From the IMG/VR virus record IMGVR_UViG_3300019378_000501: a stretch of DNA of 64,000 nt; one strand, written 5' to 3'. Source of the stretch: an uncultured virus (IMG/VR IMGVR_UViG_3300019378_000501). Its lineage: Duplodnaviria; Heunggongvirae; Uroviricota; Caudoviricetes. Below the pieces are notes generated by a model. That model worked only from the letters and a program-made list of their open reading frames with translations. It did no database searches and was not told where the DNA came from. The position numbers and the translations under genes were made by a program. Positions 13,284 through 63,111 of this stretch are shown here, in pieces (positions within the stretch are counted from its first letter, which is position 1; every line of letters starts with the position of its first letter).

Positions 13284-13351
13284 TCGAGATCCGGGCAGGC
13301 AAAGCTACACGAGAAGCAATGCCTGCCCGGATGTTCTTTGGAGGCTAAAAT

Positions 13352-15352
13352 ATGCACAGACTGAGTATCGACCTTGAAACGTATTCCAGTATTCCCATTG
13401 CGAAAGCTGGCGCGTTTCGTTACGTCGACAGCGATGATTTTGAAATACTGCTGTTTGCTTATTCACTTGACGGAGGCCCTGTCAATGTGATCGACGTGGC
13501 AAGCGGCGAAACCGTCCCTGATTGGCTCACATCCGCTTTACATGACCCGGAATACATCAAGTCGGCTTACAATGCGGCGTTTGAATTTGGCTGTCTGAGC
13601 AAGGTCTACGGCCCCATGCACCCGGAGCAGTGGCGCGACACGATGTTGCACGGCCTGTATGCCGGATATACTGCGGGCCTCGATGCTACGGGCCGCGCGC
13701 TGGGCTTGCCAGAGGACAAGCAGAAGTTGAACACCGGCAAGGCGCTGATCCGATATTTCTGCGTCCCATGTAAGGCGACCAAAGCGAACGGAGGCCGAAC
13801 CCGAAACCTCCCGCACCACGATCCTGACAAGTGGCAGCTTTTCAAGGACTACAATGCGCAGGACGTTGTTACAGAGATGGAAATTGCAAAGCGGCTGTCC
13901 GCTTTCCCGGTTCCCGATTTTGTGCAGCGACAGTGGGAAACGGATCTGCGCATCAACACGCGCGGCGTTGCCGTAGATATGGAATTTACGCGCGGCGCGC
14001 TTTATGTGGGCGATGTTGTTTCTAAGGAACTGACCGACGAAGCTATCAGCATTTCAGGGTTGGACAACCCCAACAGTGTTAAGCAGCTTATGGGCTGGCT
14101 GAACACCGAAACCGCCGACGGCGTTTCCGTGGAAAACCTGCGGAAAGAAACGGTAACGGATCTGTTGGCTGTCGGAGGCCACAGTGAGGCAGTACAACGA
14201 ATGTTGGAAATCCGGCAGGAGCTTGGCAAGACTTCTACAAAAAAGTACGACGCTATCGAATCTTGCGTGTGTTCCGATGGCCGGGTACGCGGGTTGTTGC
14301 AGTTCTACGGAGCAAACCGTACCGGCAGATGGGCGGGCCGTCTGGTGCAGGTGCAGAACCTCCCCCGGACGTACATAGGTCATTTGGACATGGCTCGCAA
14401 TTTTGTGAAGCAGCACAAAAAGGAGCATCTGCGCATGGTCTACGGAAATGTATCCGATACCCTGTCGCAGTTGATCCGAACGGCGTTGACCGCTACACCG
14501 GGCAATGTGCTGATTGACGCGGACTTTTCGGCAATCGAAGCTCGCGTGATTGCATGGCTCGCCGACGAGAAGTGGCGACTGGACGTGTTCAACACCACCG
14601 GCAAGATCTACGAAGCGTCCGCAGCCATGATTTATAACGTCCCTGTAGAAACCATTGTCAAAGGACATCCCAACTACGCTCTGCGACAGCGCGGTAAGGT
14701 TGCTGAACTGGCACTGGGTTATCAGGGCGGCGTAGGAGCTATGCGTCGTATGGACGTTTCCCATGCGCTGGATGATATGTCTGACGACGAAGTGCAGGAG
14801 ATCGTAAACAACTGGCGAAACGCAAGCAGCCGTATCCGGGATCTTTGGTACGACATGGAGAACGCGGCGCTTGAGGTTATCTCTTATGGCGGCTCCCGGC
14901 AGGTGCGTTGCTTAACCTTGGCTCGTGAGTATGACATCATGCAGGGAACGCCGGTGCTTTCGATCCGGCTACCTTCTGGGCGCAAACTCTATTACATCAA
15001 TCCGCAGCTCACAGAAAATCGGTGGGGCGCACCGTCCATCTCTTACATGGGCGTTGACCAGACCTCTAAAAAGTGGAAACCCATTGAAACCTACGGTGGT
15101 AAGCTGGTGGAGAACTGTGTTCAGGCAATCGCGCGCGATTGCTTGGCCGAAGCTATCGAGAATCTGGAACGCAACGGCTTTCCTATCGTGTTCCATGTTC
15201 ACGACGAAGTGGTGATCGACGTAAAGCGATTTGCTGACGACGAAACCATGTTGGAGAAAGTTAAATCTATTATGGCCGCTCCTATTCCGTGGGCGCAGGG
15301 CTTGCCCCTCAACGCCGACGGTTGGGTCGGAGACTTCTTTAAGAAGGATTAA
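13352..15352 (+). CDS. Phage family A DNA polymerase
   Basis: SIDLETYS exo motif, RTGRWAGR, DFSAIEARV (motif A), RQRGKVAELALGY (B), HVHDE (C). Confidence 0.93.
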   Translation: MHRLSIDLETYSSIPIAKAGAFRYVDSDDFEILLFAYSLDGGPVNVIDVASGETVPDWLTSALHDPEYIKSAYNAAFEFGCLSKVYGPMHPEQWRDTMLHGLYAGYTAGLDATGRALGLPEDKQKLNTGKALIRYFCVPCKATKANGGRTRNLPHHDPDKWQLFKDYNAQDVVTEMEIAKRLSAFPVPDFVQRQWETDLRINTRGVAVDMEFTRGALYVGDVVSKELTDEAISISGLDNPNSVKQLMGWLNTETADGVSVENLRKETVTDLLAVGGHSEAVQRMLEIRQELGKTSTKKYDAIESCVCSDGRVRGLLQFYGANRTGRWAGRLVQVQNLPRTYIGHLDMARNFVKQHKKEHLRMVYGNVSDTLSQLIRTALTATPGNVLIDADFSAIEARVIAWLADEKWRLDVFNTTGKIYEASAAMIYNVPVETIVKGHPNYALRQRGKVAELALGYQGGVGAMRRMDVSHALDDMSDDEVQEIVNNWRNASSRIRDLWYDMENAALEVISYGGSRQVRCLTLAREYDIMQGTPVLSIRLPSGRKLYYINPQLTENRWGAPSISYMGVDQTSKKWKPIETYGGKLVENCVQAIARDCLAEAIENLERNGFPIVFHVHDEVVIDVKRFADDETMLEKVKSIMAAPIPWAQGLPLNADGWVGDFFKKD

Positions 15353-15369
15353 GAAAGGACACGCGAAAA

Positions 15370-15675
15370 ATGAAAAAAGGAAAATCGATTATCGTTACCG
15401 TTTTGGTTGCCGCAATGTTGGCAGTCATTGACTGCTGTTTTTACGTCCTGTGCGTTCCCGCCTTTGCTGTTTTAACTGGGGCGTTCGTGCTTTATGGCTA
15501 CGTCCACTGGGCTGCTGACTTTTGCCGTTGGATGCGCAAAGTCGAACCCGAAGCAAAGCACCTTGCGCCTCAGCAGGGCGGTGAGGTTTACGACTGGGCG
15601 AAAGACGAAGCCCCGGATCAGCACGACCCCGAAAAGAGTGAATCTCTTATGCGCGTACTGAGCGAGGACATCTAA
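15370..15675 (+). CDS. Membrane hypothetical protein
   Basis: Two N-terminal hydrophobic segments. Confidence 0.6.
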   Translation: MKKGKSIIVTVLVAAMLAVIDCCFYVLCVPAFAVLTGAFVLYGYVHWAADFCRWMRKVEPEAKHLAPQQGGEVYDWAKDEAPDQHDPEKSESLMRVLSEDI

Positions 15676-15693
15676 AACACGGAGGTCTTTACC

Positions 15694-16038
15694 ATGAAAT
15701 GTACTGTATGCGGAACTGAGTTTCCCGCAATTCGGGAGAGACACTACATCTCCCGCAATCTTACCAAGACCGGCGTTGCCGCCGCATTTTCTTCTACTGA
15801 CGAGCCTGAGATCTTCGACAGCTTCGATTGTCCGAATTGCGGCTGTCAGGCTATTGCACAGACGAGAAAGCGCGATTTCATTCCCTGTGACTGCTGTGAC
15901 GAAGATCTGCTTGAGGATGTGGACAACAGCACGCTTGCGGCCCATTTAGGAATCACCGAGCGGCAGTTGGAAACCATTTACGCCGCCAAAGCAGAGGGCA
16001 GACGGCTCCATATCGGAAAGGAAGGTAAGCACAAATGA
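15694..16038 (+). CDS. Zn-ribbon hypothetical protein
   Basis: CTVC...CPNC; GGAGG RBS. Confidence 0.65.
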   Translation: MKCTVCGTEFPAIRERHYISRNLTKTGVAAAFSSTDEPEIFDSFDCPNCGCQAIAQTRKRDFIPCDCCDEDLLEDVDNSTLAAHLGITERQLETIYAAKAEGRRLHIGKEGKHK

Positions 16039-16670
16039 AAATCATTAAACCCGGTTTCGAGTTTATCACGCCTATCAACGGCGAAGTGATCCTGTCCCGC
16101 ATTGAACAGTGCGGCAGAGTTTGTTACAAATCCGAGGGCAAGATCAAAGACGGCAGCGCAGAAGCGTTCTGTCGTGGTCTTATTAAGCGCGGGCATGAGG
16201 CCGTGTTGGAGCATTGCAGCTTCACAGTTAAGTTCATCGTCGACCGCGGCGTTTCTCACGAGATCGTGCGTCACCGTCTGGCAGCCTATTGTCAGGAAAG
16301 CACCCGCTATTGCAACTACAGCAAGGGTGAGTTCGGCGGCGAAATTACGGTCATTGAGCCGCTGTTCTTTGCCGAAGGTACGGCAGGCTACCGTATGTGG
16401 AAAGGCGCTTGCGAGCGTGCTGAGGTCGCGTATTTCGATCTGTTGAACGAGGGTTACACCCCGCAGCAGGCCCGCGCGGTTCTCCCCAACAGCCTGAAAA
16501 CTGAGGTCGTTATGACCGCCAACATCCGCGAGTGGCGACACTTCTTTAAGCTGCGTTGCTCCGAGGCCGCGCACCCGCAGATCCGCGAGGTAGCTACACA
16601 ACTGCTGAGAGCGACCCGCGAAAAGATCCCTGTCCTGTTCGACGACATCTTCCCTGAGGTGGGCGCATGA
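16035..16670 (+). CDS. thyX: FAD-dependent thymidylate synthase
   Basis: GHEAVLEH, RGVSHEIVRHR...QESTRY, ARAVLP, N.REWRHFFKLR. Confidence 0.93.
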   Translation: MKIIKPGFEFITPINGEVILSRIEQCGRVCYKSEGKIKDGSAEAFCRGLIKRGHEAVLEHCSFTVKFIVDRGVSHEIVRHRLAAYCQESTRYCNYSKGEFGGEITVIEPLFFAEGTAGYRMWKGACERAEVAYFDLLNEGYTPQQARAVLPNSLKTEVVMTANIREWRHFFKLRCSEAAHPQIREVATQLLRATREKIPVLFDDIFPEVGA

Positions 16671-17011
16671 GCGGCGGTCACTTCGAGTATCTGGACAGCC
16701 AGTTAAAGTCAGAAATCTTCGGTTGGGACGACCGCCCGCGCAACGCTTTTGAGGATCGTGAGATCTCCGAGTTGGTGTGGGACGTTCTGAACCTGATCCA
16801 CGACTACGACTGGTACAGATCCGGCGACACCTGCAAAGAAACTTGGCTCAAGAAAAAAGCTGAGTTCAAAAAGAAATGGTTTGGCGGCAACCGTGGCGTT
16901 CGCGTGAGACGGATCGTGGACACAGTTCTGGCCGAAGCCAAACAGGAACTTTATGAAACCTACGGTTTGGAGCAAGACGCTCCCGGAGAAAGTGAGGTAG
17001 ACAATGGCTAA
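16667..17011 (+). CDS. Hypothetical phage protein
   Basis: ATGA-coupled ORF. Confidence 0.65.
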   Translation: MSGGHFEYLDSQLKSEIFGWDDRPRNAFEDREISELVWDVLNLIHDYDWYRSGDTCKETWLKKKAEFKKKWFGGNRGVRVRRIVDTVLAEAKQELYETYGLEQDAPGESEVDNG

Positions 17012-17166
17012 GATGCTTATTTCGATCATGTTCGCCGTGCTGGGTGTTATCCTCACGCTTGGCTGTGTCGGAGAGAAGGACTACCAGAACAAAAAGCTGT
17101 ACGCAGTTGTGGCGTTTGCTCTGTTTGTCCTGCTGCTGGTGAGCGTGATCGTATGAGGAGAACCGA

Positions 17167-17496
17167 ATGAAAATCCGTATTTTGGATTCTGAATGGTCGG
17201 TCATTGAACGCTCAGAGGCAGATGATCCCCGATTAAAAGAGTGCGACGGCTATTGCGATTGGACGACCCGCGAAATTGTCGTGGAGCGCGAAATCACAGG
17301 AACCCTTGGCGACATGGACAACTATGTACGCAAAGTGAAGCGCCACGAGATCGTACACGCGTTTTTAACAGAGTGCGGTTTGCACGAGTGTTCCGGCGCG
17401 ACCGACGCTTGGGCCTTAAACGAAACCATGGTCGACTGGTTTGCCCGCATGGGCGCAAAAATCTATAAAGCGTGGCAGGATGCAGACGCGATTTAA
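17167..17496 (+). CDS. HExxH-motif phage protein
   Basis: RHEIVHAFL...NETMVDWFA. Confidence 0.65.
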   Translation: MKIRILDSEWSVIERSEADDPRLKECDGYCDWTTREIVVEREITGTLGDMDNYVRKVKRHEIVHAFLTECGLHECSGATDAWALNETMVDWFARMGAKIYKAWQDADAI

Positions 17497-17508
17497 GGAG
17501 AAACAGTT

Positions 17509-17877
17509 ATGAACAGACCTGAAATTCTGGATACCGCAAAGAAGTGTGTTTGCGGTCAGCGTGAACAGGATTACGGCAAGCCGGAGGATAATTTCAGCAC
17601 CATCGGTCTGCTGTGGGGCGTTTATCTGAGAGCTGCCCACCCTCAGTTGCAGACGGTCATGGGCGCAAACGCTATTACGCCCAAGGACGTGGCTATGATG
17701 ATGGCCCTGCTGAAAGTGGCTCGTATTGCTACCGGCGACACCCCGGACAGCTTTGTGGATCTGGCTGGGTATGCAGCTTGCGCGGGCGAGATAGCTACAC
17801 AGGACGCAGCGACGGATCTGAAACTGCCCAGCGTCCCGGCCCACGTTGTCGCGAACATGGCTGCGCGAGGCAGATAA
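17509..17877 (+). CDS. DUF6378-like protein
   Basis: R..DYG.PEDNF..I..LW, DVAMMMALLKVAR, DSFVDLAGYAAC. Confidence 0.7.
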   Translation: MNRPEILDTAKKCVCGQREQDYGKPEDNFSTIGLLWGVYLRAAHPQLQTVMGANAITPKDVAMMMALLKVARIATGDTPDSFVDLAGYAACAGEIATQDAATDLKLPSVPAHVVANMAARGR

Positions 17878-18611
17878 TGAGGTACGTCGCAAGTTGCTCA
17901 TTTGGCAAAGACAGTGTTGCCACGGTGATCCTTGCGAAAATACATAATGAACCACTGGACGAAGTTGTGTATTGCGAGGTTATGTTTGACGAGCGCACTT
18001 CCGCAGAAGTGCCGGAACACGCAGAGTTCATCCATAATGTCGCAATACCGACTTTTGAATCTTGGGGGATAAAAGTAACGGTGTTGCGCGCTCCCGGAAA
18101 GCATTTCATTGAGCGCTTCAACCATCGTGTGGGCAGCGGCCCGCACACGGGTAAAATTTGGGCTTGGCCGCTTTGTGGCCGGTGTTATGTCCAACGTGAT
18201 TTGAAAGTACGACCCATTGAGAGATGGAAACGGAGTATTGACAAAGACACGGTACAATACTTGGGCATCGCGACGGACGAACAAGATCGGCTTATGCGGC
18301 TCGACGGCGTGCAAAAAATCTCCCTCTTAGACAAGTATGGGTTGACAGAGGAAGATGCAAAACAACTCTGTAAAGATTGGGGCCTGCTATCCCCGGTTTA
18401 CGAGTTTACGGAGCGGGGGGGGTGTTTCTTTTGCCCCAACGCGAAGGACGACGAGCTGAGGCATCTGTGCGAACATCACCCCGAACTGTGGTTGTCATTA
18501 CGTCTACTGCAAGGGCAGCCGGATAAAACGACCGAACGTTGGAACCGCACTGAGACATTTTTCGACGTAGATAAACGAATAAGGAGGGCAATCAAAGATG
18601 ATCGCTGTTGA
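17877..18611 (+). CDS. Phosphoadenosine phosphosulfate reductase family protein
   Basis: SCSFGKDS PP-loop; RGGCFFCP; true start taken at MRYVAS. Confidence 0.8.
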   Translation: MRYVASCSFGKDSVATVILAKIHNEPLDEVVYCEVMFDERTSAEVPEHAEFIHNVAIPTFESWGIKVTVLRAPGKHFIERFNHRVGSGPHTGKIWAWPLCGRCYVQRDLKVRPIERWKRSIDKDTVQYLGIATDEQDRLMRLDGVQKISLLDKYGLTEEDAKQLCKDWGLLSPVYEFTERGGCFFCPNAKDDELRHLCEHHPELWLSLRLLQGQPDKTTERWNRTETFFDVDKRIRRAIKDDRC

Positions 18612-18787
18612 AAAGCTGAATGGCGAAATCACGACTTTCGAGGACGTGAAGGAGCCTCAGGCAGACGAAAAAGCATCCGACACCCACGAACCCGTTAAGT
18701 GTGGTTGTATTTCCTGCGGCGGTAGAGAGATCCCGGCAGACGATATTGAAACCCGACGGAAGATCGAGCGCTACAGGAAGAAATATC

Positions 18788-19147
18788 ATGGGTAAAGGTG
18801 CAAGACAGCGCGCACAGCGCCAAAAAGAAGAATCTGAATACAAGCTGACCGGGCCACAACGTAAGGCCATGAACAAGGAAATCAACGCCCAAATCCTTGA
18901 AAAAGATATGGGGTACTACTTCGACATGGACGCTGCGGTTTTATGGGTACTGCATCGAAAGTTCGGTTTTGGGAAAAAGCGGTTGCGCCGATTTTTCGAG
19001 GAGTTCGCTGCATCTCACGAGGAGCTGCGGCAGTATTACGAGTTGGACGACGACGATAACGGCATCTGGCTATGTAGAAAACAGCTCAAGAAGTACGGCG
19101 TGGACGTAGAGGCTTGGGAAAAGGAGAATATGCAAAATGGAAAATAA
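18788..19147 (+). CDS. Hypothetical phage protein
   Basis: LHRKFGFGKKRLRRF motif common in Firmicutes phages. Confidence 0.6.
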   Translation: MGKGARQRAQRQKEESEYKLTGPQRKAMNKEINAQILEKDMGYYFDMDAAVLWVLHRKFGFGKKRLRRFFEEFAASHEELRQYYELDDDDNGIWLCRKQLKKYGVDVEAWEKENMQNGK

Positions 19148-19532
19148 TAAACCCTTGACCGTGACCGAACTGGTTCAGGAGGCCCACGGTAACGCCGTCA
19201 AGCACGGCTTTTGGGACGAACCACCTGAGTTTGGTACGTCTATCGCCCTAATTCACTCCGAACTGTCCGAGGCTCTGGAAGAAGTTCGGGCAGGAAACCG
19301 TATTCGCCCCGGTGAGCCTACCCCGGCTGTATATTACAGCGGCGGCGGTTACGTCGCTACGGCCCCTACCGCTTGCGCGAAGAAGCCCGAAGGATACGCT
19401 ATGGAACTGGCTGACGCGGTTATCAGAATCGCGGATCTGTGCGGATATATGGAAATCGATCTCGAAGCAGTGATCCGGGAGAAGATGGAATACAACGCTA
19501 CACGACCTTACAAACACGGTAAGAAGTTTTGA
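19137..19532 (+). CDS. MazG-like NTP pyrophosphohydrolase
   Basis: LIHSELSEALEE...ELADAVIR...KMEYN..R.YKHGK. Confidence 0.75.
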   Translation: MENNKPLTVTELVQEAHGNAVKHGFWDEPPEFGTSIALIHSELSEALEEVRAGNRIRPGEPTPAVYYSGGGYVATAPTACAKKPEGYAMELADAVIRIADLCGYMEIDLEAVIREKMEYNATRPYKHGKKF

Positions 19533-19542
19533 GGATGATCCG

Positions 19543-19752
19543 ATGGCTGAGTACGATATGAAACGAAATGCGGAGGGCTACGTCGATCCTACCGCATACG
19601 CCGCGCTGAAATCTATCGCGCGTGATGAAAAAGTGGAAAAGAAAGCTGCTTATGTCATTTCAATCATAAAATTCATCGCGAAAGAATCTGGTTTCGAGTT
19701 GATGAACCGTATTGAATTGAGGCACAAACAGTCTGGACGTACTTTCCGTTAA
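19543..19752 (+). CDS. Hypothetical phage protein
   Basis: NAEGY.DPTAY motif. Confidence 0.6.
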   Translation: MAEYDMKRNAEGYVDPTAYAALKSIARDEKVEKKAAYVISIIKFIAKESGFELMNRIELRHKQSGRTFR

Positions 19753-19766
19753 AAACTTTTTGCTCA

Positions 19767-19828
19767 GTCAAAGGCTCTTGACCGACAAGGGCCTTTGACC
19801 TATAATAAAGTAGTCAAAAGAAATTGAC
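19767..19828 (+). promoter_or_regulatory. Operator-covered promoter of the primase gene
   Basis: TTGACC(19778)-17-TATAAT(19801) with operator-like sites at 19767, 19784, 19813. Confidence 0.8.
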
Positions 19829-19868
19829 CGCCCCTGCTGGCACGAGCGAGGGGGGGGGAGGACAACCT

Positions 19869-22334
19869 ATGAACTTAACCTACGATAAACAACTGAATGT
19901 CGTGGTCGGTAACAGCCGGAAAGCGACCGTTTGGAACCCGTTGACGCTGACGGTATCCGAGCTTTACTCTCGTCTGGAATCGCCTCTGCGCGGCGCTGAG
20001 ACGCTTGCAGACTACCTTGCACTTTCCAAGGCAGATCAGGACAGCAAGAAGGACATCGGCGGTTTTGTGGGCGGCAGATTGAGCGCGCCGCGCCGGAAAG
20101 CCGATAATGTCCTTGACCGCTGCGTTGTGACGCTGGACTTCGACACCATCCCACCGTTTGGCACGGAGAAGGTGTTGGCGGCTCTGGACGCAAAGGGGTT
20201 TGGCTACTGCGTTTACAGCACCCGTAAGCACAGACCCGAAGCGCCGCGCCTGCGTATTGTCGTCGTCACCGACCGTGTTATGACCGTTGACGAATACGAC
20301 GCAGTGAGCCGCCGTCTGGCTGCTGACATCGGTATTACGATGGCCGACCCGACCACTTTTGAGGCGAGCCGCCTCATGTACTGGCCCTCTTGCAGTGCAG
20401 ACGGTGAGTACATATTCAAGTACAAAGACGCGGAATTTATGAGCGTGGATCAGACGCTCGCAAGCTACACAGACTGGCGCAACTGGTCTGAGCGTCCGCA
20501 GGTTCCGGGCGCAAACAACTATCAAAAATTGGCCGTCCGACAGGGAGATCCCGAAGCAAAGACGGGCTTGATCGGCGCTTTTTGCCGGGTGTATGACATA
20601 TTCGGCGCGATGGCAGAGTTTCTTCCCGGCATCTATGAGCCGGTGGACAACGACCCCCATCGGTACACCTACTTAAACGGCAGCACCACCGGCGGTGCGA
20701 TCATCTACGACAACGGTAAGTTCCTGTATTCCCATCATGCTACCGACCCCTGCGGCGGCAAGCTGGTGAACGCGGCAGATCTGGTGCGCCTGCATAAGTA
20801 CGGCCATTTGGACGCAAACGCCGCATTGGATACGCCGGTAAACAAGTTGCCCTCATATAAGGCTTTCTTGGAGTTCGCCAACGCCGACAAGCAGGTATCT
20901 ACGTTGCTGATCCGGGAACGGTACGCCGCCGGTCAGCAGGAGTTCGCGGGGGTGGCGGCGGGAGGCGCTACACCGACGAACAGCGCCGGAGCTGCGGCAG
21001 ACATCGAAGATCCCGACGCTTGGATGGCTGAATTGAAAACCACGCAACAAGGCGCGATTAAATCTACCATCGATAACATTTGCATTATCCTTGACGGTGA
21101 TCCTCTCTTGAAAGGCAAATTCGCGCTGAACAAGTTCGCTGGTCGCGGTGAGGTGTTGGGGCCGTTACCTTGGGACGCGGAGGGTAAACGCCGCCTGTGG
21201 TCGGACACTGATAACAACGGTCTGTATTGGTACATGGAAAAGCGCTACGACATCACCAAGCGCGGAAACATCGACGCTGCGCTTGATCTCCACGCCAACA
21301 CCCACGCGTTCAATGAGGTGCAGGATTACTTGAACAGCCTCGCATGGGACGGAGTTCCCCGGCTGGACACCCTGTTCATCGACTGTTTGGGCGCAGAGGA
21401 TAACGAGTACAACCGCGTGGTTTGCCGTAAGATCTTTACGGCGGCAGTGGCTCGCGCCATGAACCCCGGCTGTAAGTTCGACTGTATGTTGATTCTCTGC
21501 GGCAATCAGGGCTGGGGTAAGTCGACCCTGATTAACAAAATGTCTCGCGGTTGGCTCAACGACAGCATCCGCACGTTCGAGGGCAAGGAGGCATCTGAGC
21601 TTTTGCAGGGCGTGTGGTTGGTCGAGGTGGCCGAGCTGGACGCTTTCAGACGCACCGACGTTGCCCGCATCAAGCAGTTCCTTTCCTTGCAGGTCGACCG
21701 CTACCGCGCGGCCTATGGCCGTCACGCCAAGGAGCAGCCCCGGAGCTGTGTTTTCTTCGGCTCTTGTAACCAGATGGATTTCTTACAGGATACCACCGGC
21801 AACCGTCGTTTCTGGCCCGTCGACGTGAACGTTATTCCCCGGAAGAAAAAGGCGTGGGATTTGACCGACGACGAGATCTCGCAGATTTGGGCAGAAGCCA
21901 AAGCCCGCTGGGTCATGGGCGAGAAGCTGTTCCTGTCCCCTGAGGAAGAAGAACAGGCCAAGGTTATGCAGGAGGCACACCGAGAGACAAGCCCGAAGGA
22001 GGGCATGATCGAAGATTTCGTAGCAAAGGAAATCCCGGTCGACTGGCAGAAGTGGAGCATCGACCGGCGGCGCGATTGGTGGGCGCAAGCTACACACGGG
22101 GAGATCCAGACTGTACCGCGCGATCGGATTTCGGCAGTCGAGGTTTGGTGTGAGCTGTACAACGGCAATCAGAAGGATCTTCGACAGACAGATACCCGCG
22201 AAATCAACAACATTCTTGCAAAAATGCCCAATGTTAAGCGTGCAAACTCCAATTTCCGTTGTGGCCCTTATGGACGGCAGCGCGGTTTTATCATCGACAT
22301 GAGTGTCAACAAAGTCGTGGCAACAGATGGGTAA
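19869..22334 (+). CDS. Primase-helicase with VapE-type P-loop domain
   Basis: N-terminal AEP-like (LDFD, YSTRKH, PRLR); GNQGWGKST Walker A; DTTGNRRFWPV. Confidence 0.88.
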   Translation: MNLTYDKQLNVVVGNSRKATVWNPLTLTVSELYSRLESPLRGAETLADYLALSKADQDSKKDIGGFVGGRLSAPRRKADNVLDRCVVTLDFDTIPPFGTEKVLAALDAKGFGYCVYSTRKHRPEAPRLRIVVVTDRVMTVDEYDAVSRRLAADIGITMADPTTFEASRLMYWPSCSADGEYIFKYKDAEFMSVDQTLASYTDWRNWSERPQVPGANNYQKLAVRQGDPEAKTGLIGAFCRVYDIFGAMAEFLPGIYEPVDNDPHRYTYLNGSTTGGAIIYDNGKFLYSHHATDPCGGKLVNAADLVRLHKYGHLDANAALDTPVNKLPSYKAFLEFANADKQVSTLLIRERYAAGQQEFAGVAAGGATPTNSAGAAADIEDPDAWMAELKTTQQGAIKSTIDNICIILDGDPLLKGKFALNKFAGRGEVLGPLPWDAEGKRRLWSDTDNNGLYWYMEKRYDITKRGNIDAALDLHANTHAFNEVQDYLNSLAWDGVPRLDTLFIDCLGAEDNEYNRVVCRKIFTAAVARAMNPGCKFDCMLILCGNQGWGKSTLINKMSRGWLNDSIRTFEGKEASELLQGVWLVEVAELDAFRRTDVARIKQFLSLQVDRYRAAYGRHAKEQPRSCVFFGSCNQMDFLQDTTGNRRFWPVDVNVIPRKKKAWDLTDDEISQIWAEAKARWVMGEKLFLSPEEEEQAKVMQEAHRETSPKEGMIEDFVAKEIPVDWQKWSIDRRRDWWAQATHGEIQTVPRDRISAVEVWCELYNGNQKDLRQTDTREINNILAKMPNVKRANSNFRCGPYGRQRGFIIDMSVNKVVATDG

Positions 22335-54390: not shown

Positions 54391-54422
54391 ATCACGACAA
54401 ACGACAATCGGAGGTAACGATT

Positions 54423-54626: not shown

Positions 54627-54631
54627 GCGCT

Positions 54632-55024
54632 ATGAAGGTAGTAAAAAACGACCGCGAGCTGCGGGTCGCTTATGAAATCCTTACCCTCCTGACCGATGGG
54701 AGCCACACGTTCGCCAACCCTGAGAGGCTGTCCCAGTGCATCATCGAAACAAAGCGCGCAATGCGCCGGTACACTCACCGCGAAACCGGCTACGACCGCC
54801 GGATCATCAAGGACGACGGCATGGATGGTTATCTCAGCCTTGAGCGGCTGCCCGACGACATTCGGGATCTGGAAGAAGCCAACCGTTTCTTTGAGCAGTT
54901 TATGACCTACCATTACCGGCCCTCTGCCTACGATTGCACCGGGCAGGCTATGACAAATTGGTTCAAAGTGTTCCCCCGAAACGGCGGGTTCTACGCCTAC
55001 CATTCTGTCAGCTTCGACGTTTAA
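54632..55024 (+). CDS. Hypothetical protein
   Basis: GGAGGT RBS; YDCTGQ motif. Confidence 0.6.
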   Translation: MKVVKNDRELRVAYEILTLLTDGSHTFANPERLSQCIIETKRAMRRYTHRETGYDRRIIKDDGMDGYLSLERLPDDIRDLEEANRFFEQFMTYHYRPSAYDCTGQAMTNWFKVFPRNGGFYAYHSVSFDV

Positions 55025-55429
55025 GGAGGCGGCAAGGATGTTCGAGAAACGCTTTTGCCCCTACTGCGGCGCTCCGTTATCTGACGGCTGTGATTGCGCC
55101 GCAGAGTTGGAGCGGTACGAAAACGAGCTGATCGAGGAACTGGAAGATCGCCAGTGCATGACAGCTTGGCAGCAGGACTTGATTGACCTGCGCAGGTTTG
55201 AGCGATAAGGAGGTTTTGATATGGCTACCTACAAAGTGACGCGTGAAGGTTATCGCGCAACGATCCTCACCCGCGAGGGTGAAACCCGCGTTTCCCGGCT
55301 CTATCCCCGGTGCGACCGTGAGCTTTTGGAGCAGGCGTGTGAACGCATGAGTAAGATCGGCGAAGCCGTTTCCTATTCCATCGATTGGGTTAGGGTTCAG
55401 ACAGATGCAGGGTAAGGGAGGACAACCAC

Positions 55430-55684
55430 ATGAATGAGTTTAATCAGGGCTACGAAATCATCGCAGCCGAAACCTATCAGATCACCGAGAAAGGCAGAGA
55501 GTGCCGGATCGTGTTAGGCCGCATGGAAACCAAGTACGGCGCGATGTTTGTCACTTGGGAGAGTACCACCGGCGCTATCGGCGGCGACGGATACGCGGAC
55601 TACTTTTGGGGCCATTACCTCGACAACGAGAAAGCGGCTCGCGCCGACTATCACCGCCGACTGCTTGAGAAGTATGAGAGCTGA
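55430..55684 (+). CDS. Hypothetical protein
   Basis: FVTWE...YFWGHY...A..DY..R. Confidence 0.6.
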   Translation: MNEFNQGYEIIAAETYQITEKGRECRIVLGRMETKYGAMFVTWESTTGAIGGDGYADYFWGHYLDNEKAARADYHRRLLEKYES

Positions 55685-55858
55685 GAAAGGAGCTGTCACC
55701 ATGTACGAAATCGTGTACGACTACGACGACGGGTGGAGCGAATCCCGAAACAACGTCGAAACGTTCGAGGGTTCGTGGTCTGAGTTGCAAGACCACATCA
55801 AGAAGATGCGCCGCAACGGTTGCTACAACATTTACGCGACAAGCGTTAAGGAGGGCTT

Positions 55859-56266
55859 ATGAAACGACTGACTTACTGGAACGGTAAGAAATGGATCTTG
55901 CCGCAGGGATCTTGGCGAGAGATCGCCGACCGACTGGCCGCCTATGAAAATACCGGCTTGGAGCCTGACGAGATCGCTCAGTTACAGGCCCACAGTCCTG
56001 TTGAGAACGATTTTCCAGTCGGCGGCGACATCTTTACCGCAGTAATCGTAGCCCGTGAGGGCGGCGGCTATGTCCCCTACATCGACCCGGTAAACTGCTG
56101 TGCTTTCCTCCGTGCGTCGGAGATCCGGGAGCTGGCAGACAATCCCGATGTTATCAACCAGCGCGGCGCAAACCATCTTGTTATTGAGGTTTACCCGGAT
56201 CGTTGGCACGTCGCTCAGGTGGGCGGTTATACCCCGGACAGCGGTATGTATACCAAACTTTACTGA
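55859..56266 (+). CDS. Hypothetical protein
   Basis: RLAAYENTGLEP motif. Confidence 0.6.
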   Translation: MKRLTYWNGKKWILPQGSWREIADRLAAYENTGLEPDEIAQLQAHSPVENDFPVGGDIFTAVIVAREGGGYVPYIDPVNCCAFLRASEIRELADNPDVINQRGANHLVIEVYPDRWHVAQVGGYTPDSGMYTKLY

Positions 56267-56281
56267 TCGGAGGATTTGAAT

Positions 56282-57199
56282 ATGAACTATTACGAGATCA
56301 ACGAAGATGCTGCCAAACGCGCTAAGGACGCGAACAGCTTTTTCGACTACGTTCCCGGTTCCGCAACTCACCACTACCGTGCGGAAGTGGATAGGGCTGC
56401 TGAGATCGCAGCCAAGCAGAAAGAGCGTGTCGACCCTATGTACCACGCCAAGATCGACGGTCTGTTGGAGAAGTTCGCCCGCGAGCTGGCCGAAGTTATC
56501 AATCATCGAAACGAGATTGACGCACGCGTACCCTCTGTGATGGTCGCCGGTGGCAGCAATTTCCCTGTCGCGGCTAAGAATCGGCAGAACGCAGCTCGTG
56601 AGCGTAACGACGCGAGGTATGCAGAGGTTCAGGAGATTTTGCGGAAGATCCAGAGCGTCGGCATGGGCGGCATTATGAGCGACGATAAAAACGCCGTCGC
56701 CAAGCTGACCGCGAAGTTGGAAAAGCTCGAAAAGCATCAGGCACTTATGCGAGCCGCCAATGCTGCGGTTCGCATGAAGGATGTTGAGAAGGGCGACGCT
56801 AAGTTAACGGAGTTGGGTTACACCGCAGAGGAAATCAATCAGCTCCGCACTCCCGATTTCTGCGGTCGTCTCGGATACCCTGATTATGAGATGAAGAATA
56901 ACAACGCGAACATTCGCCGGATTAAGGAGCGTATTGCCGCTTTGGAGAAAGAGGCGCAGCGCGCCGCCGAGAATGTCGACGCGGAGCCGGTCAAGGGCGA
57001 CGGCTATGAGTTGATTGAAAACGCCGAGATTGGGCGTATTCAGTTTGTTTTCGACGGTAAGCCCGACGAGTATACCCGCGCGCTGTTGAAGTCTAACGGT
57101 TTCCGTTGGTCGCCCTCTCAAGGCGCTTGGCAACGGATGCTGAACGATAACGGCAGATATGCGGCCCAGCGGATTATCGAAAAACTGAACGCAGAATGA
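56282..57199 (+). CDS. Conserved phage/ICE protein (DUF3560-like)
   Basis: PSVMVAGGSNFP, NNNANIRR, FDGKP...LK.NGFRWSP...AWQR. Confidence 0.65.
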   Translation: MNYYEINEDAAKRAKDANSFFDYVPGSATHHYRAEVDRAAEIAAKQKERVDPMYHAKIDGLLEKFARELAEVINHRNEIDARVPSVMVAGGSNFPVAAKNRQNAARERNDARYAEVQEILRKIQSVGMGGIMSDDKNAVAKLTAKLEKLEKHQALMRAANAAVRMKDVEKGDAKLTELGYTAEEINQLRTPDFCGRLGYPDYEMKNNNANIRRIKERIAALEKEAQRAAENVDAEPVKGDGYELIENAEIGRIQFVFDGKPDEYTRALLKSNGFRWSPSQGAWQRMLNDNGRYAAQRIIEKLNAE

Positions 57200-57825
57200 C
57201 GGATAAGCTACACGAAAGACGGAGGCGACAAGCGTGAACAACGTTTATGAAGGTTTTGCAATCATCGGTATTTACCTCGCACCGCTTATGGCGGCCCTCG
57301 CTATCGGCGGTATCTTTTCAGATTTCATCTTGCCCCGGTGTCCACGCTTGCTCTGTTTTCTTGAGTGGGTGTTCGGGATCGACTTGGGGCCATGAGAAAG
57401 GAGCTTCAATGTTCATCAAAGCGACCATCAAAGTTACCAAGGAGAACACGATCTGGATTAACCTCGATAACGTCACAATGGTAACTCCCTGCATCAACGG
57501 TACGACATTGCATTTCACCGGCGGCGGGCAGGTCAACGTTGTCGAGGATTTCGACACGATCCGTGAGCGGATCACGTTCGCAGAAGCAATGAGAAAGGTG
57601 TGACAACTGTGGGATATTTCGATACCCTTGCAAAGTTCTTAGGGATGTTCCCTAACTTTCTCGAATCGGTGGCGTTTTGGTCGCCGGTTCGAGACAAAAA
57701 TACTATTCGTGTCGAGCTGAAAAGCGGTCAAAAGCTGCTGTTTACCTACTGGAATGACCGGGAGTGGAGCCTGACCGCCGTAAACGGCGCAGTTCGGAAA
57801 GTTTAACCGTAAGGAGGAATGACCA

Positions 57826-58308
57826 ATGCTTACCGAGATCACCGGCGACCTGTTGACGGTTCGCGCCGGAATTATCTGTCACCAAGTAAACTACTACGGT
57901 GTCATGGGTGGCGGTGTCGCCGCTGCCATTGCTGATAAGATTCTGTCAGCCGAACAATATGCCGCCTACTCCATGTACTGCAAGCAGGCTGGCCGTACAG
58001 CCTTAGGCAGCGTTCAGTTCTTAGGATGCGCCCCCGGTCTGGTCGTCGCCAATATGTTCTGTCAGGACGAAGCTCTTGCCCAGAGAGGCGGCAACCTTTG
58101 CATCACTGACTACGACCTTATGTACCAATGTTTCAAGCGCGTGCGCAATATGGCACAGATCCAAAAGATGCGGGTTTACATCCCGCGCAATATTGGCTGC
58201 GGCATCGCCGGTGGTAACTGGGATACCGTGAAGCAGATCATGGAGGACGTTTTCGGGAAAGGCCCTGTGGACGCTTTCATCGTAGGGCGGGAGGTTGGAA
58301 ATGGCTAA
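57826..58308 (+). CDS. Macro domain protein
   Basis: GDLL, ICHQVN..GVMGGGVA.AI, ANMFCQ, IGCGIAGG.W. Confidence 0.85.
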   Translation: MLTEITGDLLTVRAGIICHQVNYYGVMGGGVAAAIADKILSAEQYAAYSMYCKQAGRTALGSVQFLGCAPGLVVANMFCQDEALAQRGGNLCITDYDLMYQCFKRVRNMAQIQKMRVYIPRNIGCGIAGGNWDTVKQIMEDVFGKGPVDAFIVGREVGNG

Positions 58309-58589
58309 AATCGTCGAATGTGTTTCCGGCATTGATGGTAACGGCTATCAGTATATGTTGGGTTGGCGAGCGCCACTGTGGTTGGATGCACACGGCCTGA
58401 GAAATGGGCCAGCATGGGCGCTCCGACTGCACCACGATAAGAACCGTTCCGAACTGGAAACCTTTATTTGGGTTGGTGGCACACCTCGCAACGGAAAAAC
58501 TGTCGCGGTGTTCAAAGACGAAATCATTACCGAGGGCGAACTTCCGGCACTACTGAAAAAGCATAACATCCCGTTCGTGGAGGTCGAAG

Positions 58590-58943
58590 ATGGCAAGGCG
58601 TAAGAGCTACACGAACGCGGATCAGATCCGCAGCATGACCGACGATCAGTTGGCAAAAGCACTTTTAGATGCGAACGATACCGGCGTTTCCATTCCTTTC
58701 TGTCAAGAGCTGCCGGAGTGTGAGGCGCTGTTGGACACCGGGATTATCCCGGATGAAAAGTGTCTACAGTGCGTCAAGGAGTGGCTGAAACGGCCTGCAT
58801 TTACGAGGGGGGGGAGTATCGCATGGATAATAAACTGGGTAAGGGTGTTCGTTTTGAACGTATCCGTCGAATCACCGGCTATCTGGTCGGAACCTTGGAT
58901 CGCTGGAATAATGCCAAGAAAGCTGAGGAACGTGACCGTGTAA
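58590..58943 (+). CDS. Hypothetical protein (3' end depends on G8 tract)
   Basis: TNAD.IRSMTD..LA motif, Cys cluster. Confidence 0.5.
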   Translation: MARRKSYTNADQIRSMTDDQLAKALLDANDTGVSIPFCQELPECEALLDTGIIPDEKCLQCVKEWLKRPAFTRGGSIAWIINWVRVFVLNVSVESPAIWSEPWIAGIMPRKLRNVTV

Positions 58944-58999
58944 AGCACGGCATTGTTATCAGGAAGGAGGAAGAAAATCATGCCCAACATGAAGTCTGA
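58823..58999 (+). CDS. Stand-alone NrdD C-terminal (glycyl radical) domain
   Basis: FERIRRITGYLVGTLDRWNNAKKAEERDRVKH. Confidence 0.75.
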   Translation: MDNKLGKGVRFERIRRITGYLVGTLDRWNNAKKAEERDRVKHGIVIRKEEENHAQHEV

Positions 59000-59415
59000 T
59001 GAATACTGGCGCGGTAAACCCGGAGCCAAGTACGGTATCTGGAACGATGTCAAAAAGGAGTTCCAGTTCGGTATTTGCGAGGACACGCCCGCGTTGGCAG
59101 AAGCTCGCCTCAGACAACGGATTGGCCGCGACAGCCACAAGTGGAGGTTCCAAGTTCGACGGTTGACCGGCGAGGCGCTACACCGAGCGATGGAGGCGGC
59201 GAATGAAAAGTGAACCGCAGCAGATCCCCGCAGCGAAAAGTTGTAAATGCGGTGAGCGCCCGGTTTACTTTACGTTTGACGATCCCGCCGGTGTTATTTT
59301 CCACCGCATGATGTGTCCGCGTTGCGGAAAGAAGGTAACGAGTTTATCAAAGATTAAAGCGATTTTTCGTTGGAACGAATACATAACGGAGGTGATGTCG
59401 TGGTTGGTGAAGAAA

Positions 59416-59612
59416 TGATTGAGCGCGAGGACAAGCGCCGTCGTCATGCGTTGACATTGGCGCAGGTCGAATGGGCTTACGAGAAATGGTGTTTGGGTTA
59501 TACCTTGGCTCAGATTGCCGAAGCCCTCCACGTCTCGTCCCGCACGGTATCGCGTGCGTTTGAATTGTTGGGCAAGCCACGAGTACGGCCCAAGCTGATT
59601 TATGGAGGCTAA
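59416..59612 (+). CDS. Small HTH protein
   Basis: YTLAQIAEALHVSSRTVSR; start approximate. Confidence 0.55.
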
Positions 59613-59615
59613 ATT

Positions 59616-59999
59616 ATGAGAGGCGTTGTATTTACAACCGATAACCAGATGTACGTCAAGGACTTCGGACGGCCCTTGTATGAAACCATCGGCAAAGAGG
59701 TCGACGGTTGGATCGAAGTCGTTCACCCTGTCGGGCTTAAAAGAGCGCCCAGCAAACTTTGTTTCGTCTGCAATGAAGAAGGTCTGTTGCGCGGTCTGCC
59801 TTTGAACGCGTTCGGCAGTGTGCTTTACGGCACGCAGCACCACGGACACCCTATTGTCGGTAACATCGTGTTTATGCGTGAGGGCATTGTGAACGGCGAG
59901 CCTGATTTTGTCGAGCTGACCGACACTGATATTCAGTGGATTAAAAAGTTGGCTCGTGACGTGTCCGGCGACCTGATCCGGGAAGTTGAAGCGAGGTGA
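59616..59999 (+). CDS. DUF3846-like protein
   Basis: VDGWIEVV, CNEEGLL.GLP.N, IVGNIVF. Confidence 0.7.
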   Translation: MRGVVFTTDNQMYVKDFGRPLYETIGKEVDGWIEVVHPVGLKRAPSKLCFVCNEEGLLRGLPLNAFGSVLYGTQHHGHPIVGNIVFMREGIVNGEPDFVELTDTDIQWIKKLARDVSGDLIREVEAR

Positions 60000-60005
60000 G
60001 ATCTC

Positions 60006-60329
60006 ATGCCTGAAATCGAATTGCAGCGATGCCCCAACTGCGGCGGCCCTGCGAAACTCCACACGAAACACGGAAAGTTCCGCTACGAGTGCGACGGCGA
60101 CTGTTGGACTTCCACCGGCCTGTATAGCGCGCAGGAGGGGGCCGCCCGTGAATGGAACCGACTGAAAGGGCGGGTGCCTGAACGGGATTGTCTGATGTGC
60201 AAGCACTCCATGTCCTGTGATTCTCCTGACGGCCCACAGTTGGTCTGCTTTTGTTGTGCTGGACACGAAGGTGAGGAAACGTATGTTGATGAACCCTGTG
60301 AGAATTATTCGGGAGCATGGTTCTTATGA
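60006..60329 (+). CDS. Lar-like (restriction alleviation) Zn-finger protein
   Basis: EL..CP.CGG.A...EC...C...A...WNR. Confidence 0.5.
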   Translation: MPEIELQRCPNCGGPAKLHTKHGKFRYECDGDCWTSTGLYSAQEGAAREWNRLKGRVPERDCLMCKHSMSCDSPDGPQLVCFCCAGHEGEETYVDEPCENYSGAWFL

Positions 60330-60440
60330 GCGACACCTAAAATCGAAAATCCGTAAGTTTAATCGCGTATTTTGAGAAAAAATCTCAAATTCGCGTAGTT
60401 AAAAACGAAAATACGCAAATTAGGAGGTATCTAAGAAACA

Positions 60441-60770
60441 ATGGGACTTAGCATTACGATCACTCGCCGGAAAGGGAAAAAGTGTCCTCATTGTGGTGAG
60501 CTGGTGGGGTATGAGGTGCTTGCGGATCTGATGGGTGGTGGCCGAAACTGGTATCCGATTTTAGAGCGTTTCGGCTACTATGTACCCTATGAGTCGCGCA
60601 CCGAAGAAAACGACTGGTATGGAAAAGACATGGTGTTGACCGCCGAACAAGCCGATGAACTGTACCGTTATTCTCAGCACCACGAGCTTTATTGTCAGGG
60701 CGGTCTTAGGTCGGTGATCGCTCAGGCGTTGCATGAGGGCGACCAGATCGTAATTAACGCGGATTGGTAG
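60441..60770 (+). CDS. Hypothetical protein
   Basis: AGGAGGT RBS; CPHCG. Confidence 0.6.
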   Translation: MGLSITITRRKGKKCPHCGELVGYEVLADLMGGGRNWYPILERFGYYVPYESRTEENDWYGKDMVLTAEQADELYRYSQHHELYCQGGLRSVIAQALHEGDQIVINADW

Positions 60771-61553
60771 GAGGTAAAACATGGCAGCACCAAATAACTC
60801 CCGATGCCCCCGATGTAAAGCAAGGCTCCGGGTCAGATCCGGGCAGTATGTAAGCTATACCTGCGGACGCTGCGGCTATTCCAAAACAGAGGAGCCGGAT
60901 AATATGACCAAAGAGTTTCTTTGGGGGCCGCTGTTCGAGACGAGGAGGATGAAACGTGGCAAGTGAAAAACCCTCCGTTCATATCGGAGATACTTTGTTC
61001 ATCATCGGAAAGTACAGTTATTCGCCGGACGAGGCCCCGTCAATCATAGAGGTGCAAGTGGCGTACGATCTCCATAAGCGGCATTTCGCCTATCCTAAAT
61101 CGGGTCGTGGCACATTCAGCTTTGCAACCGGCGACATGGGAAAAACGGTATTTACGAACCGCAAGGACGCAGAGCGCGTTTTAAGGAGGATTTTAGATGC
61201 GTCCGATTGATGGCAATGGTAGAAAGTACAAGCTGGAGGAATACGACCTCAAGGCTCTCCGGGAGGCACGGCAGCGAATTATGGTCGTTTACAACTACCA
61301 TTACGGCGCTCCCCGTGCGTCTGGTACGATCAAGCGGATCGAAACCATCCTTGCAAAAATCGATCGTTTGATAAAAGAAAGTGAGGATTAACCCGATGGC
61401 AAACAGATTCTATGCAAAAGGCGAGCTGAAAGACGAAAAAATCGTTGTAGCGCTCAAACGTGCTGCCAACGATTATGAAAACGGCGAGATTGCAGAGGTG
61501 CATGACCTGTTGTTGGAAATCGCCGCAGCTATCGAAGAATGGGAGGACGCGTA

Positions 61554-61922
61554 GTGATTTTTGAAAACGAATCAATACGAAGTCGTTTTACAGCGGCTTT
61601 CCCGAAGTTTTATATCAATCACAATTTGGAGGCGATTGTCCATCCGCGCAGAAATTCTTATTTCCTGCTGTCCGATGTGCGTACCGAAAAGGATCTGATC
61701 GCCAAAATCCTTGAATGGCTTTCCAGAGAGGCGGCCAAATCTATTACTAAAGAATCTCAAAAATATCACCTTGACGGGATCAATGCTTTTCTTGGTACTG
61801 ATTTTTCACAAGAGGACATGATGCAAATTTACACCTATCTTGGAAACAGGTGTAACCATGATAAGACGCTACACTTTATTGATAGCGGGTATGACCTGTC
61901 CGTATTGACGAAGGAGGCCTAA
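61554..61922 (+). CDS. Hypothetical phage protein
   Basis: KILEWLSR, IYTYLGN.CNH motif; start uncertain. Confidence 0.55.
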   Translation: MIFENESIRSRFTAAFPKFYINHNLEAIVHPRRNSYFLLSDVRTEKDLIAKILEWLSREAAKSITKESQKYHLDGINAFLGTDFSQEDMMQIYTYLGNRCNHDKTLHFIDSGYDLSVLTKEA

Positions 61923-61923
61923 C

Positions 61924-62253
61924 ATGGCTAAAGAAAAAACCGCAAAAGAGATCGTGCAGGCAGCGGCTCAGGAGCATCGCCGCAAGGCCAATGAGAACTG
62001 GGAGTATTACCAGACCACGGGCGTAGGTCGCTACGACACCGCCTATTACAAACACGATTCCATCGCTACGGCGCTGGAAAAGTATCTGGCTTCCGAACAG
62101 ATCCGGGAGGATGCGTCTGCGTTCAAAAACATCCTTGCGAATTTTGCAGCAGACGCAGCGGCTACCAAGGGCCTGCCCGATGCTGACCGCCTGAAAGCGC
62201 TGGACAAGCTGGCGCGGGAGCTGGTGTGGCGTGCAAAGATGGAGGGGATCTGA
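61924..62253 (+). CDS. Hypothetical protein
   Basis: AAGGAGG RBS. Confidence 0.6.
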   Translation: MAKEKTAKEIVQAAAQEHRRKANENWEYYQTTGVGRYDTAYYKHDSIATALEKYLASEQIREDASAFKNILANFAADAAATKGLPDADRLKALDKLARELVWRAKMEGI

Positions 62254-62671
62254 TGGAATGTAGAAACTGTCCGAACCTCAAGCATTGTCAAAGGCAGTGT
62301 ATGGATCTGCCCGCCGGGAAAACTTGCGGCGATTGTCGCTATGTGAATTGGTGTATGGTGGCTTACGGGGTCAAGCCCGAAAACACGTCCTGCGACTTTG
62401 AGCCGATTCGATTCAAACCGAAGGAGATGTAAAAAATAATGTTCGCATCGAAAAGAAAGCTGAGAGAAGAAAACACCCGGCTCAAATACCGGGTGGCTGA
62501 TCTGGAAGAACGGCTCTGCCCGTGTGAGAGCCACGCGTGGAAACACGTCGGCACTGACCTTGAGGGCGGCACAGGCAGGGGCGACGAACTGTCCATCTAT
62601 AACTACAGATGTCGTCGTTGCGGTAAAATGCTGCGGTCGATCCAGCCTTTCTTGGATCGGGAGGTTTCAGA

Positions 62672-63111
62672 ATGAATACAGCAGTAATGTTCAGCAGTAA
62701 GACCGACGATTGGGCTACGCCGCAGGAGTTTTTCGACGGCTTGAACCGGGAGTTCGGTTTCACCCTCGATCCTTGCGCCGACGACCGCAATCACAAATGC
62801 GCGAAGTATTACACCCGCGCGCAGGACGGTCTTTCGCAGGACTGGGGGGGGAACGTGTTTTCTGTAACCCGCCGTATGGCAAAGAAATTGGAGACTGGGT
62901 TCGCAAGTCTCTGGAAGAAAGCGCGAAACCGAACACCCTCGTTGTTATGCTTATTCCGGCAAGAACCGACACAAAGTATTTTCACGAGTACATATACGGA
63001 AAAGCGGAGATCCGATTTATCCGTGGTCGTCTCAAATTCGGCGGGCAAAAGAACGCGGCCCCGTTCCCGTCGATGGTCGTGATCTTTGGGGCCGGGAGAG
63101 CTACACAATGA
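62672..63111 (+). pseudogene. Phage N6-adenine methyltransferase (Dam-like), frameshifted at G8
   Basis: Frame A: DDWATPQ..F..L..EFGFTLDPCA...DGL.QDW; frame B: VFCNPPYG...LIPARTDT..FH...RGRLKF. Confidence 0.8.

Follow-up and report, generated by a model that had tools for sequence, protein, structure and literature searches.

An evenly spaced, strand-polarised word in one clade of temperate phages, putatively the priming sites of a VirE-type primase-helicase

What is the role of a short word that recurs along nearly the whole of a prophage and almost always on the same strand? The question is raised by a stretch of 64,000 nucleotides from an uncultured virus of the Caudoviricetes (IMG/VR record IMGVR_UViG_3300019378_000501), here called the window, which from 7.6 kb on is a temperate siphovirus-like prophage with leftward serine integrase and repressor genes followed by a replication module, head and tail genes, a reverse transcriptase and lysis genes. 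An earlier reading of the letters by a model (the original prediction) had reported the octamer AGCTACAC at 16 places on the plus strand and at one on the minus strand, and had suggested a selected cis signal; all of these positions proved exact. The word is a real, selected and evenly spaced polar signal of one phage clade, and it probably (with a probability of roughly 0.55) represents the lagging-strand priming sites of the phage's own primase-helicase, an enzyme of the archaeo-eukaryotic primase (AEP) type.

Dinucleotide shuffles of the window give 1.09 copies of AGCTACAC on average and never more than 4 in 100 shuffles, and the most enriched 9-mer of the window is AGCTACACA, found 13 times against 0.27 expected under an order-3 Markov model, a Markov correction being one of the checks that the original prediction had proposed. 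A purine follows all 16 plus-strand copies (13 A, 3 G), as had been predicted, and the host DNA in the first 7.6 kb of the window contains no copy, again as predicted. When synonymous codons were shuffled across a curated set of plus-strand genes of the window, 1.4 copies of AGCTACAC were expected within these genes (maximum 6 in 1000 shuffles) against the 11 present, and 4.9 copies of the shorter GCTACAC (maximum 12 in 1000) against 19. Because synonymous shuffling gives far fewer copies, coding constraint is not the cause of the excess; an artefact of peptides or codons is thereby ruled out as the source of the word, and the enrichment, which the original prediction had allowed might vanish in a codon-aware model, persisted. 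The 11 copies within genes occur in both A-T-x and S-Y-T frames and the other five of the 16 are intergenic, bearing out the earlier argument against a peptide motif. The contexts described for single copies were likewise found: a 20-mer is identical at 27983 and 63089, the copy at 13303 lies in a hairpin loop, and that at 27993 precedes a terminator-like stem at 28010-28032. Gaps between copies measure 1.2-5.9 kb and are more regular than random (coefficient of variation (CV) 0.44, p=0.00065). Avoidance of MazF sites was also considered as a cause and ruled out, TACAT not being depleted (0.95).

Across relatives the conserved unit is GCTACAC, of which the window carries 24 copies on the plus and two on the minus strand; flanking information is mostly below 0.5 bit beyond positions -1 and +7 (six genomes), leaving 7-9 informative bases. 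Among 94 loci selected by their primase, 50 are positive (504 forward and 6 reverse copies, 79.5 expected, in 972 kb), 27 are negative (20 forward, 11 reverse, 26.6 expected, in 515 kb) and 17 are too short or ambiguous (40:1). Since the positive label was set by the forward count, the informative parts of this comparison are the scarcity of reverse copies and the distribution of the label on the tree, where the positive loci fall in a single primase clade that reaches down to 58% identity and includes two negatives, L017 and L205/G018. GCTACAC is 8.3-fold enriched in the relatives, CTACAC is purged from the reverse strand (16 against 60 expected), and copies at aligned positions are kept in 7 of 10 and 3 of 8 cases, compared with a background of 13%. 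Spacing is under-dispersed in all 11 GCTACAC genomes analysed (CV 0.42-0.70, p<=0.041), and the 262 gaps in the 11 positive genomes have a median of 1,674 bp, with 11 gaps shorter than 750 bp. Three complete relatives show counts of 26:0, 20:0 and 24:0, with plus copies present even among their leftward genes. The suggestion of a selected cis signal is thus backed in several ways: the excess survives a codon-aware null, relatives conserve the word, reverse copies are purged and the spacing is regular.

Short, strand-polarised and over-represented words are familiar from host chromosomes in the form of Chi and KOPS/SRS. The word described here, in contrast, is confined to the prophage and is rare and unpolarised in host DNA: a 340-kb host contig of one relative shows 28:2 in the 58 kb of prophage but 5:11 in the remaining 282 kb, a distribution that rules out a Chi or KOPS role in that host, and the hosts of the relatives are spread over Oscillospiraceae, Lachnospiraceae and other Clostridia bins. 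With the copy-free host DNA of the window, these data led to the rejection of a host Chi or KOPS word. A feature of virion DNA could take the form of programmed single-strand nicks, for which T5 and phiKMV-like phages offer precedents, or of marks that set the polarity of packaging or ejection; such a feature would suit a word that is one-stranded, genome-wide and sequence-specific. However, the word is independent of terminase and portal type, being carried by phages with unrelated head modules (portal 26% identity), and the phage G008, which combines the same head with a different replication module and lacks DUF4417, has three copies in 28 kb. A virion feature or a host word is therefore a very remote prospect. 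Of the three functions that the original prediction had offered, packaging is weakened by the same observations and Chi-like protection in the host does not agree with the host DNA, whereas a replication polarity signal fits best.

Judged from sequence, the word behaves like a primase recognition site, its membership of that class being putative. GCTACAC (here mostly AGCTACACA) would be recognised by the phage's own primase-helicase (19869-22334), the primase domain of which would start primers only at this long word. Replication would proceed in one direction, as theta or rolling circle, from an iteron origin behind the primase-helicase gene; the polarity of the word does not switch at the iteron region, and replication would therefore be one-way if that region is the origin. 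Because the word is too rare by chance, the genome may have been edited at synonymous and intergenic positions to provide about one site per 2 kb on the lagging template, with reverse copies purged. In the most parsimonious geometry the fork would move co-directionally with transcription, the sense strand would be the lagging template, and the primer would begin opposite the GC at the 5' end of the word, while reverse copies in the head-on integrase and repressor genes would serve leading-strand restart. The median gap of 1.7 kb is compatible with Okazaki fragments, which in T7 range from 1 to 6 kb (PMC12839067; this and the other papers are cited from extracts of their text).

The candidate enzyme has an AEP primase domain at residues ~1-205 (DFD 89-92, STRKH 117-121), which matches the S-2L PrimPol structure 6zp9 (Foldseek E 5e-6; VIA Z 9.0, root-mean-square deviation (rmsd) 4.6, 153 aligned) and RepB' (Z 8.3), and a VapE helicase domain at ~490-705. 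Residues D90, D92, R119, K120 and D160 are invariant in 27 primase sequences and H121 is kept in at least 90%; of 51 motif-positive primases at least 96% have Y218, and G018, whose word is CGGCACA (38:0), has E at this position. Matches covering at least 80% of the protein occur in 339 named phage records. An iteron-rich, AT-rich region lies 3' of the primase-helicase gene in the window and in relatives, and a similar arrangement of gene and iterons is described for SCCmec Cch2 (PMC7581432). The iteron words of this origin-like region vary among relatives (GTCAACA, GTTACA, GTCTACA, ATCACA, GTAAAC), while the AT-rich stretch, the hairpin and the CGCG tract are kept; in G018 the origin-like region lies behind a RinA-like gene instead.

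Other phages with VirE-type enzymes carry words of their own. A de novo test found a polarised, even 7-mer in 15 of 35 VirE genomes and in none of 16 VirE-less genomes, 10 of which have a DUF4417 hit. The words of distant VirE phages are GCGCAGT (22:0), GCAGCTT (15:0 and 14:1) and, in the cultured Bacteroides phage Bacuni_F1, GCATCCG (20:1); spacing is even in four of the five distant word-bearing genomes tested and in Bacuni_F1 too (p=0.04), and all four word copies that fall in leftward genes of distant VirE phages lie on the genome strand. The replication module (10949..24330) holds the only genes common to the window and the distant phages with other polarised 7-mers, one of which (G121) shares only replication genes with the window. 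All four words, GCTACAC included, begin with GC, mostly after a purine. If the sense strand serves as template, this suits a primer that begins pppG-C, and pppGC is what SP6 primase makes. GCTACAC also allows the pRN1 mode, in which priming would start with ATP 5' of GTG, here on the opposite strand. Covariation of word and primase would agree with the single positive primase clade and the other words of distant clades, but L017 and L346 are exceptions and the association is confounded with DUF4417. Among the distant phages (Bacuni_F1 (L651) and G120-G124) polarisation of ACTCACA was weak beside that of GCATCCG, GCGCAGT and GCAGCTT, and almost every GCAGCT or CAGCTT hexamer of G121 and G122 is part of a GCAGCTT word.

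Precedents exist for the parts of this proposal. The T7 gp4 primase, also a phage primase fused to a helicase, uses a short asymmetric site, 5'-(G/T)2GTC-3', on one template strand, with ~14 effective sites 1-6 kb apart, but it is a DnaG-like enzyme that selects a fraction of 177 abundant pentamers (PMC12839067). The enzyme considered here is an AEP, and the 7-9-base word, which chance would rarely produce, appears to have been placed in the genome at regular distances. Sequence-specific AEPs are known in pRN1 ORF904 (GTG; PMC2034472) and NrS-1 polymerase (TTTGGTTA, GTG; PMC8718748), which likewise combine an AEP domain, an accessory recognition domain and a C-terminal helicase, and the reverse strand of the word contains GTG after a pyrimidine. 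However, the accessory domain here is weakly similar to a DnaG zinc-binding fold and not to a helix bundle, and a separate PolA is encoded.

Several observations weigh against priming. The NrS-1 octamer is present in only two copies, near the genome centre (PMC7102993), and the likeness of residues 231-351 to DnaG zinc-binding domains is weak (Z 4.8-5.0). The thresholds of the de novo test were chosen after the data had been seen, and its 15 passes come from two clades only, 11 from this clade and 4 from one distant clade. A polarised, even word is lacking in 20 of the 35 VirE genomes, including a sister clade at 51-60% identity and Staphylococcus 3A, SJC15 and Adelaide; among the matches listed, de novo scans of 8 sister-clade genomes and 7 distant VirE genomes yielded no comparable word. 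The satellite-like L017/L018, whose primase departs from the conserved N-terminal residues at only 2 of 120 sites, has no copy of the word in 13 kb, and L346 is unpolarised (2:3 in 14 kb). By locus, DUF4417 is present in 40 of 40 motif-positive and 0 of 22 negative cases, leaving out loci with less than 7 kb downstream and unclassified loci, a perfect co-occurrence within the clade; both in-clade lineages without the gene (G018, and L017/L018 as far as sequenced) are without GCTACAC. Finally, across 26 dereplicated relatives the integrase and repressor genes (52 kb, homology-anchored counts) hold 28 copies in the sense of these leftward genes against 6.1 under the null (maximum 14). As an observation apart, L017/L018 consists of the replication module, a small-terminase-like gene directly after it and then DNA that does not look like phage, possibly a satellite or remnant; L017 and L339 were considered as parts of one phage, which was ruled out as they do not overlap.

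The sense copies in leftward genes bear out the remark of the original prediction that the reverse copy in the repressor gene is in sense orientation. The same genes also hold 5 genome-plus copies against 0.7 expected (maximum 4), so that both orientations are favoured there, in different lineages, whereas five integrase regions of negative phages have one copy against 1.7 expected. The flip of orientation ends with the leftward genes, with one such copy in the 108 kb upstream, and ~12 of 35 reverse copies, counted by eye, fall at a conserved G-Y-T peptide of the integrase. This sense enrichment, at genome-wide density, lends weight to a polar site linked to transcription, either a stoperator-like repressor site or a point at which an antitermination or RNA-protection factor reloads on the nascent transcript or the non-template strand, though three complete relatives have no reverse copy and retain plus copies among their leftward genes. 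All 10 positive genomes share repressor and Cro-like genes, and the stoperators of L5 and other cluster A mycobacteriophages are more than 20 asymmetric sites across a temperate genome, aligned largely with transcription (PMC9283540). However, these are repressor-bound 13-mers in intergenic spaces, according to the same source, whereas the word has 7-9 informative bases, is mostly intragenic and evenly spaced, and is identical although the repressors are only 29-72% identical; identity with stoperators was rejected on the ~13-bp consensus and the short-intergenic location. A reading by sense alone also leaves the purging of reverse copies unexplained, and the leftward-gene copies of distant VirE phages keep to the genome strand, making a link to transcription improbable. 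Similarly improbable is that another component of the replication module (the SNF2 helicase together with the VRR-NUC nuclease, the DUF2800 nuclease, or the helicase domain) uses the word as a Chi-like or loading site that would give direction to recombination or concatemer processing. Polarity and purging fit a translocating enzyme, and because the module is co-inherited (trees, shared gene set) the comparative data do not separate its enzymes from the primase; yet a Chi-like site would not need even spacing on the Okazaki scale, and the primase tree divides positive from negative phages at least as well as the SNF2 and PolA trees do.

The main and more surprising rival, itself unlikely, is that the word is the target of the DUF4417 protein, a putative transglycosylase-fold enzyme that would attach MGGRG-tagged effectors or another adduct to phage DNA for entry into the next host with the genome. 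A somewhat less likely, specific form has DUF4417 attach the effectors covalently on the non-template strand, so that ~25 would be packaged and delivered with the DNA, with a parallel in the radical SAM protein, cysteine tags and CGGCACA of G018. Because adducts must avoid the template strand to spare RNA polymerase, sense orientation, purging of reverse copies and even loading would all follow, and the orientation of the word does track gene sense in the leftward operon. In comparisons of the window's open reading frames (ORFs) across genomes, DUF4417 and a small Cro-like gene are the only real genes present in 10 of 10 positive and 0 of 9 negative genomes. The three best VIA matches of the DUF4417 model all belong to the tRNA-guanine transglycosylase (TGT) family (ArcTGT Z 9.3, QTRT2 9.0, DpdA 8.9; rmsd 3.1-3.6, 165-168 aligned), and one to four unrelated genes starting MGGRG(S/G/A) follow it, of which several encode an ADP-ribosyltransferase or a papain-fold deamidase; Pfam cut-offs are passed by 10 of the 47 cargo proteins scanned. 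In some cargo genes GGRG stands behind an NLQFF-type leader, which suggests that a free N-terminal glycine is needed. G018 exchanged the cassette, with ParB, radical SAM and MC(T/S)-tagged cargo genes in place of DUF4417, and changed the word as well (CGGCACA, 32 against 11.8 under the codon null), and L017/L018 has the primase but neither cassette nor word. However, distant VirE phages carry the same kind of word without DUF4417, which was absent from the five of them searched, and no such word occurs in the 10 VirE-less genomes with a DUF4417 hit, one of which is D29 with its MGGRG gene. De novo scans of 19 DUF4417 loci that lack the word, of 7 genomes of this kind and of D29 likewise gave no comparable word. 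Site density shows no relation to the number of cargo genes (rho -0.06, 42 loci), some positives have no cargo, G116 has DUF4417 yet shows 0 sense and 3 reverse copies in 26 kb, and relatives with the radical SAM cassette show CGGCACA 42 times against 25.9, no better than a control set (55 against 38.9). A Z near 9 is modest for a TIM barrel; Foldseek gave nothing under E 0.001 for DUF4417, its matches being generic barrels only, no solved sequence relative was found, and the Atlas gave only DUF4417 clusters. The modelled likeness to DpdA and other TGT base-exchange enzymes (PDB 7ui4, 1iq8) concerns only the predicted fold of a co-occurring protein, which precedes tagged effector genes, and among annotated window genes no 7-deazaguanine pathway genes were seen.

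Whatever the word does, the DUF4417-MGGRG cassette looks, from its gene content, like an undescribed protein tagging and delivery system. It is widespread (window 25176-27736, L306-L382, D29 at L403:437-2106), and each MGGRG gene of the window has its own extended sigma-70-like promoter match (10/12, with TG) at 25796-25824 and 26921-26949. A parallel cassette stands at the same place in G018 (23765-33064; L125:3765-13061), L407-L420, L486 and L498, and comprises a ParB-domain gene, a radical SAM gene (named DNA repair photolyase in one relative) and cargo with cysteine tags such as MCTN, MCSN, MGTC or MGSC, including ADP-ribosyltransferases. In the radical-SAM-bearing phages L449, L453, L458, L461, L466 and L469, ACCCGGA occurs 15-18:0 per 20 kb (~4 expected).

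Table 1. Copies of the word and associated features of the window
Feature	Position	Strand	Remark
AGCTACAC	13303..13310	+	intergenic, loop of hairpin 5' of PolA gene
AGCTACAC	16592..16599	+	thymidylate synthase gene, A-T-Q frame
AGCTACAC	17793..17800	+	A-T-Q frame
AGCTACAC	20463..20470	+	primase-helicase gene, S-Y-T frame
AGCTACAC	22088..22095	+	primase-helicase gene, A-T-H frame
AGCTACAC	27993..28000	+	intergenic, ahead of terminator-like stem
AGCTACAC	32846..32853	+	minor head gene, S-Y-T frame
AGCTACAC	36589..36596	+	A-T-Q frame
AGCTACAC	39175..39182	+	tape measure gene
AGCTACAC	43082..43089	+	S-Y-T frame
AGCTACAC	45718..45725	+	A-T-Q frame
AGCTACAC	50601..50608	+	intergenic, 3' of reverse transcriptase gene
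AGCTACAC	52549..52556	+	endolysin gene
AGCTACAC	57206..57213	+	intergenic
AGCTACAC	58605..58612	+	S-Y-T frame
AGCTACAC	63099..63106	+	intergenic
C-preceded GCTACAC cores (n=8)	11750, 14492, 19497, 20967, 41666, 51687, 59177, 61868 (range 11750..61874)	+	some may be background
Reverse AGCTACAC	9485..9492	-	sense in repressor gene; orthologous position kept in several relatives
Reverse GCTACAC	8604..8610	-	sense in serine integrase gene
Leftward integrase and repressor genes	7613..9824	-	only region with flipped word orientation
Replication module: DUF2800 nuclease, SSB, PolA, primase-helicase, VRR-NUC-like nuclease, SNF2 helicase	10949..24330	+	
VirE/VapE-type primase-helicase, 821 aa	19869..22334	+	candidate reader
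Putative replication origin	22303..22560	.	GTCAACA-type iterons in both orientations, AT-rich stretch, hairpin, CGCG tract
DUF4417 protein	25176..25799	+	predicted partial TIM barrel; rival candidate reader
Cargo-like gene 1, MGGRG start, 247 aa	25823..26566	+	weak zinc-protease PHROG match
Cargo-like gene 2, MGGRG start, 262 aa	26948..27736	+	no family

Elsewhere in the window, the gene order at 47387-50600, with a reverse transcriptase, a 154-aa gene upstream of it and a DUF6273 protein before that, resembles the layout of a diversity-generating retroelement. At 62672-63082 a Dam-type methyltransferase match spans only the first 63 residues of the ORF, which may be frameshifted or truncated.

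In the literature searched, where the literal word was not among the queries, no description was found of polarised primase words set at even distances in phages of this kind, of an MGGRG tag in phages or of a function of DUF4417, which the extract of one paper lists merely as a ParB fusion partner (10.1101/2025.10.10.680097). If the DUF4417 reading were true, it would represent an undescribed route of protein delivery by attachment to DNA. If the words are priming sites, as we consider probable, the PolA plus VirE primase-helicase replisomes, a widespread but unstudied class, would leave the specificity of their primase and the spacing of their Okazaki fragments written in the genome. Specificity would then be readable from the genome and could be matched to residues across clades (GCTACAC, GCGCAGT, GCAGCTT, GCATCCG, CGGCACA), the choice of priming sites would be directly testable in the cultured phage Bacuni_F1, and primases with such long sites would be useful tools.

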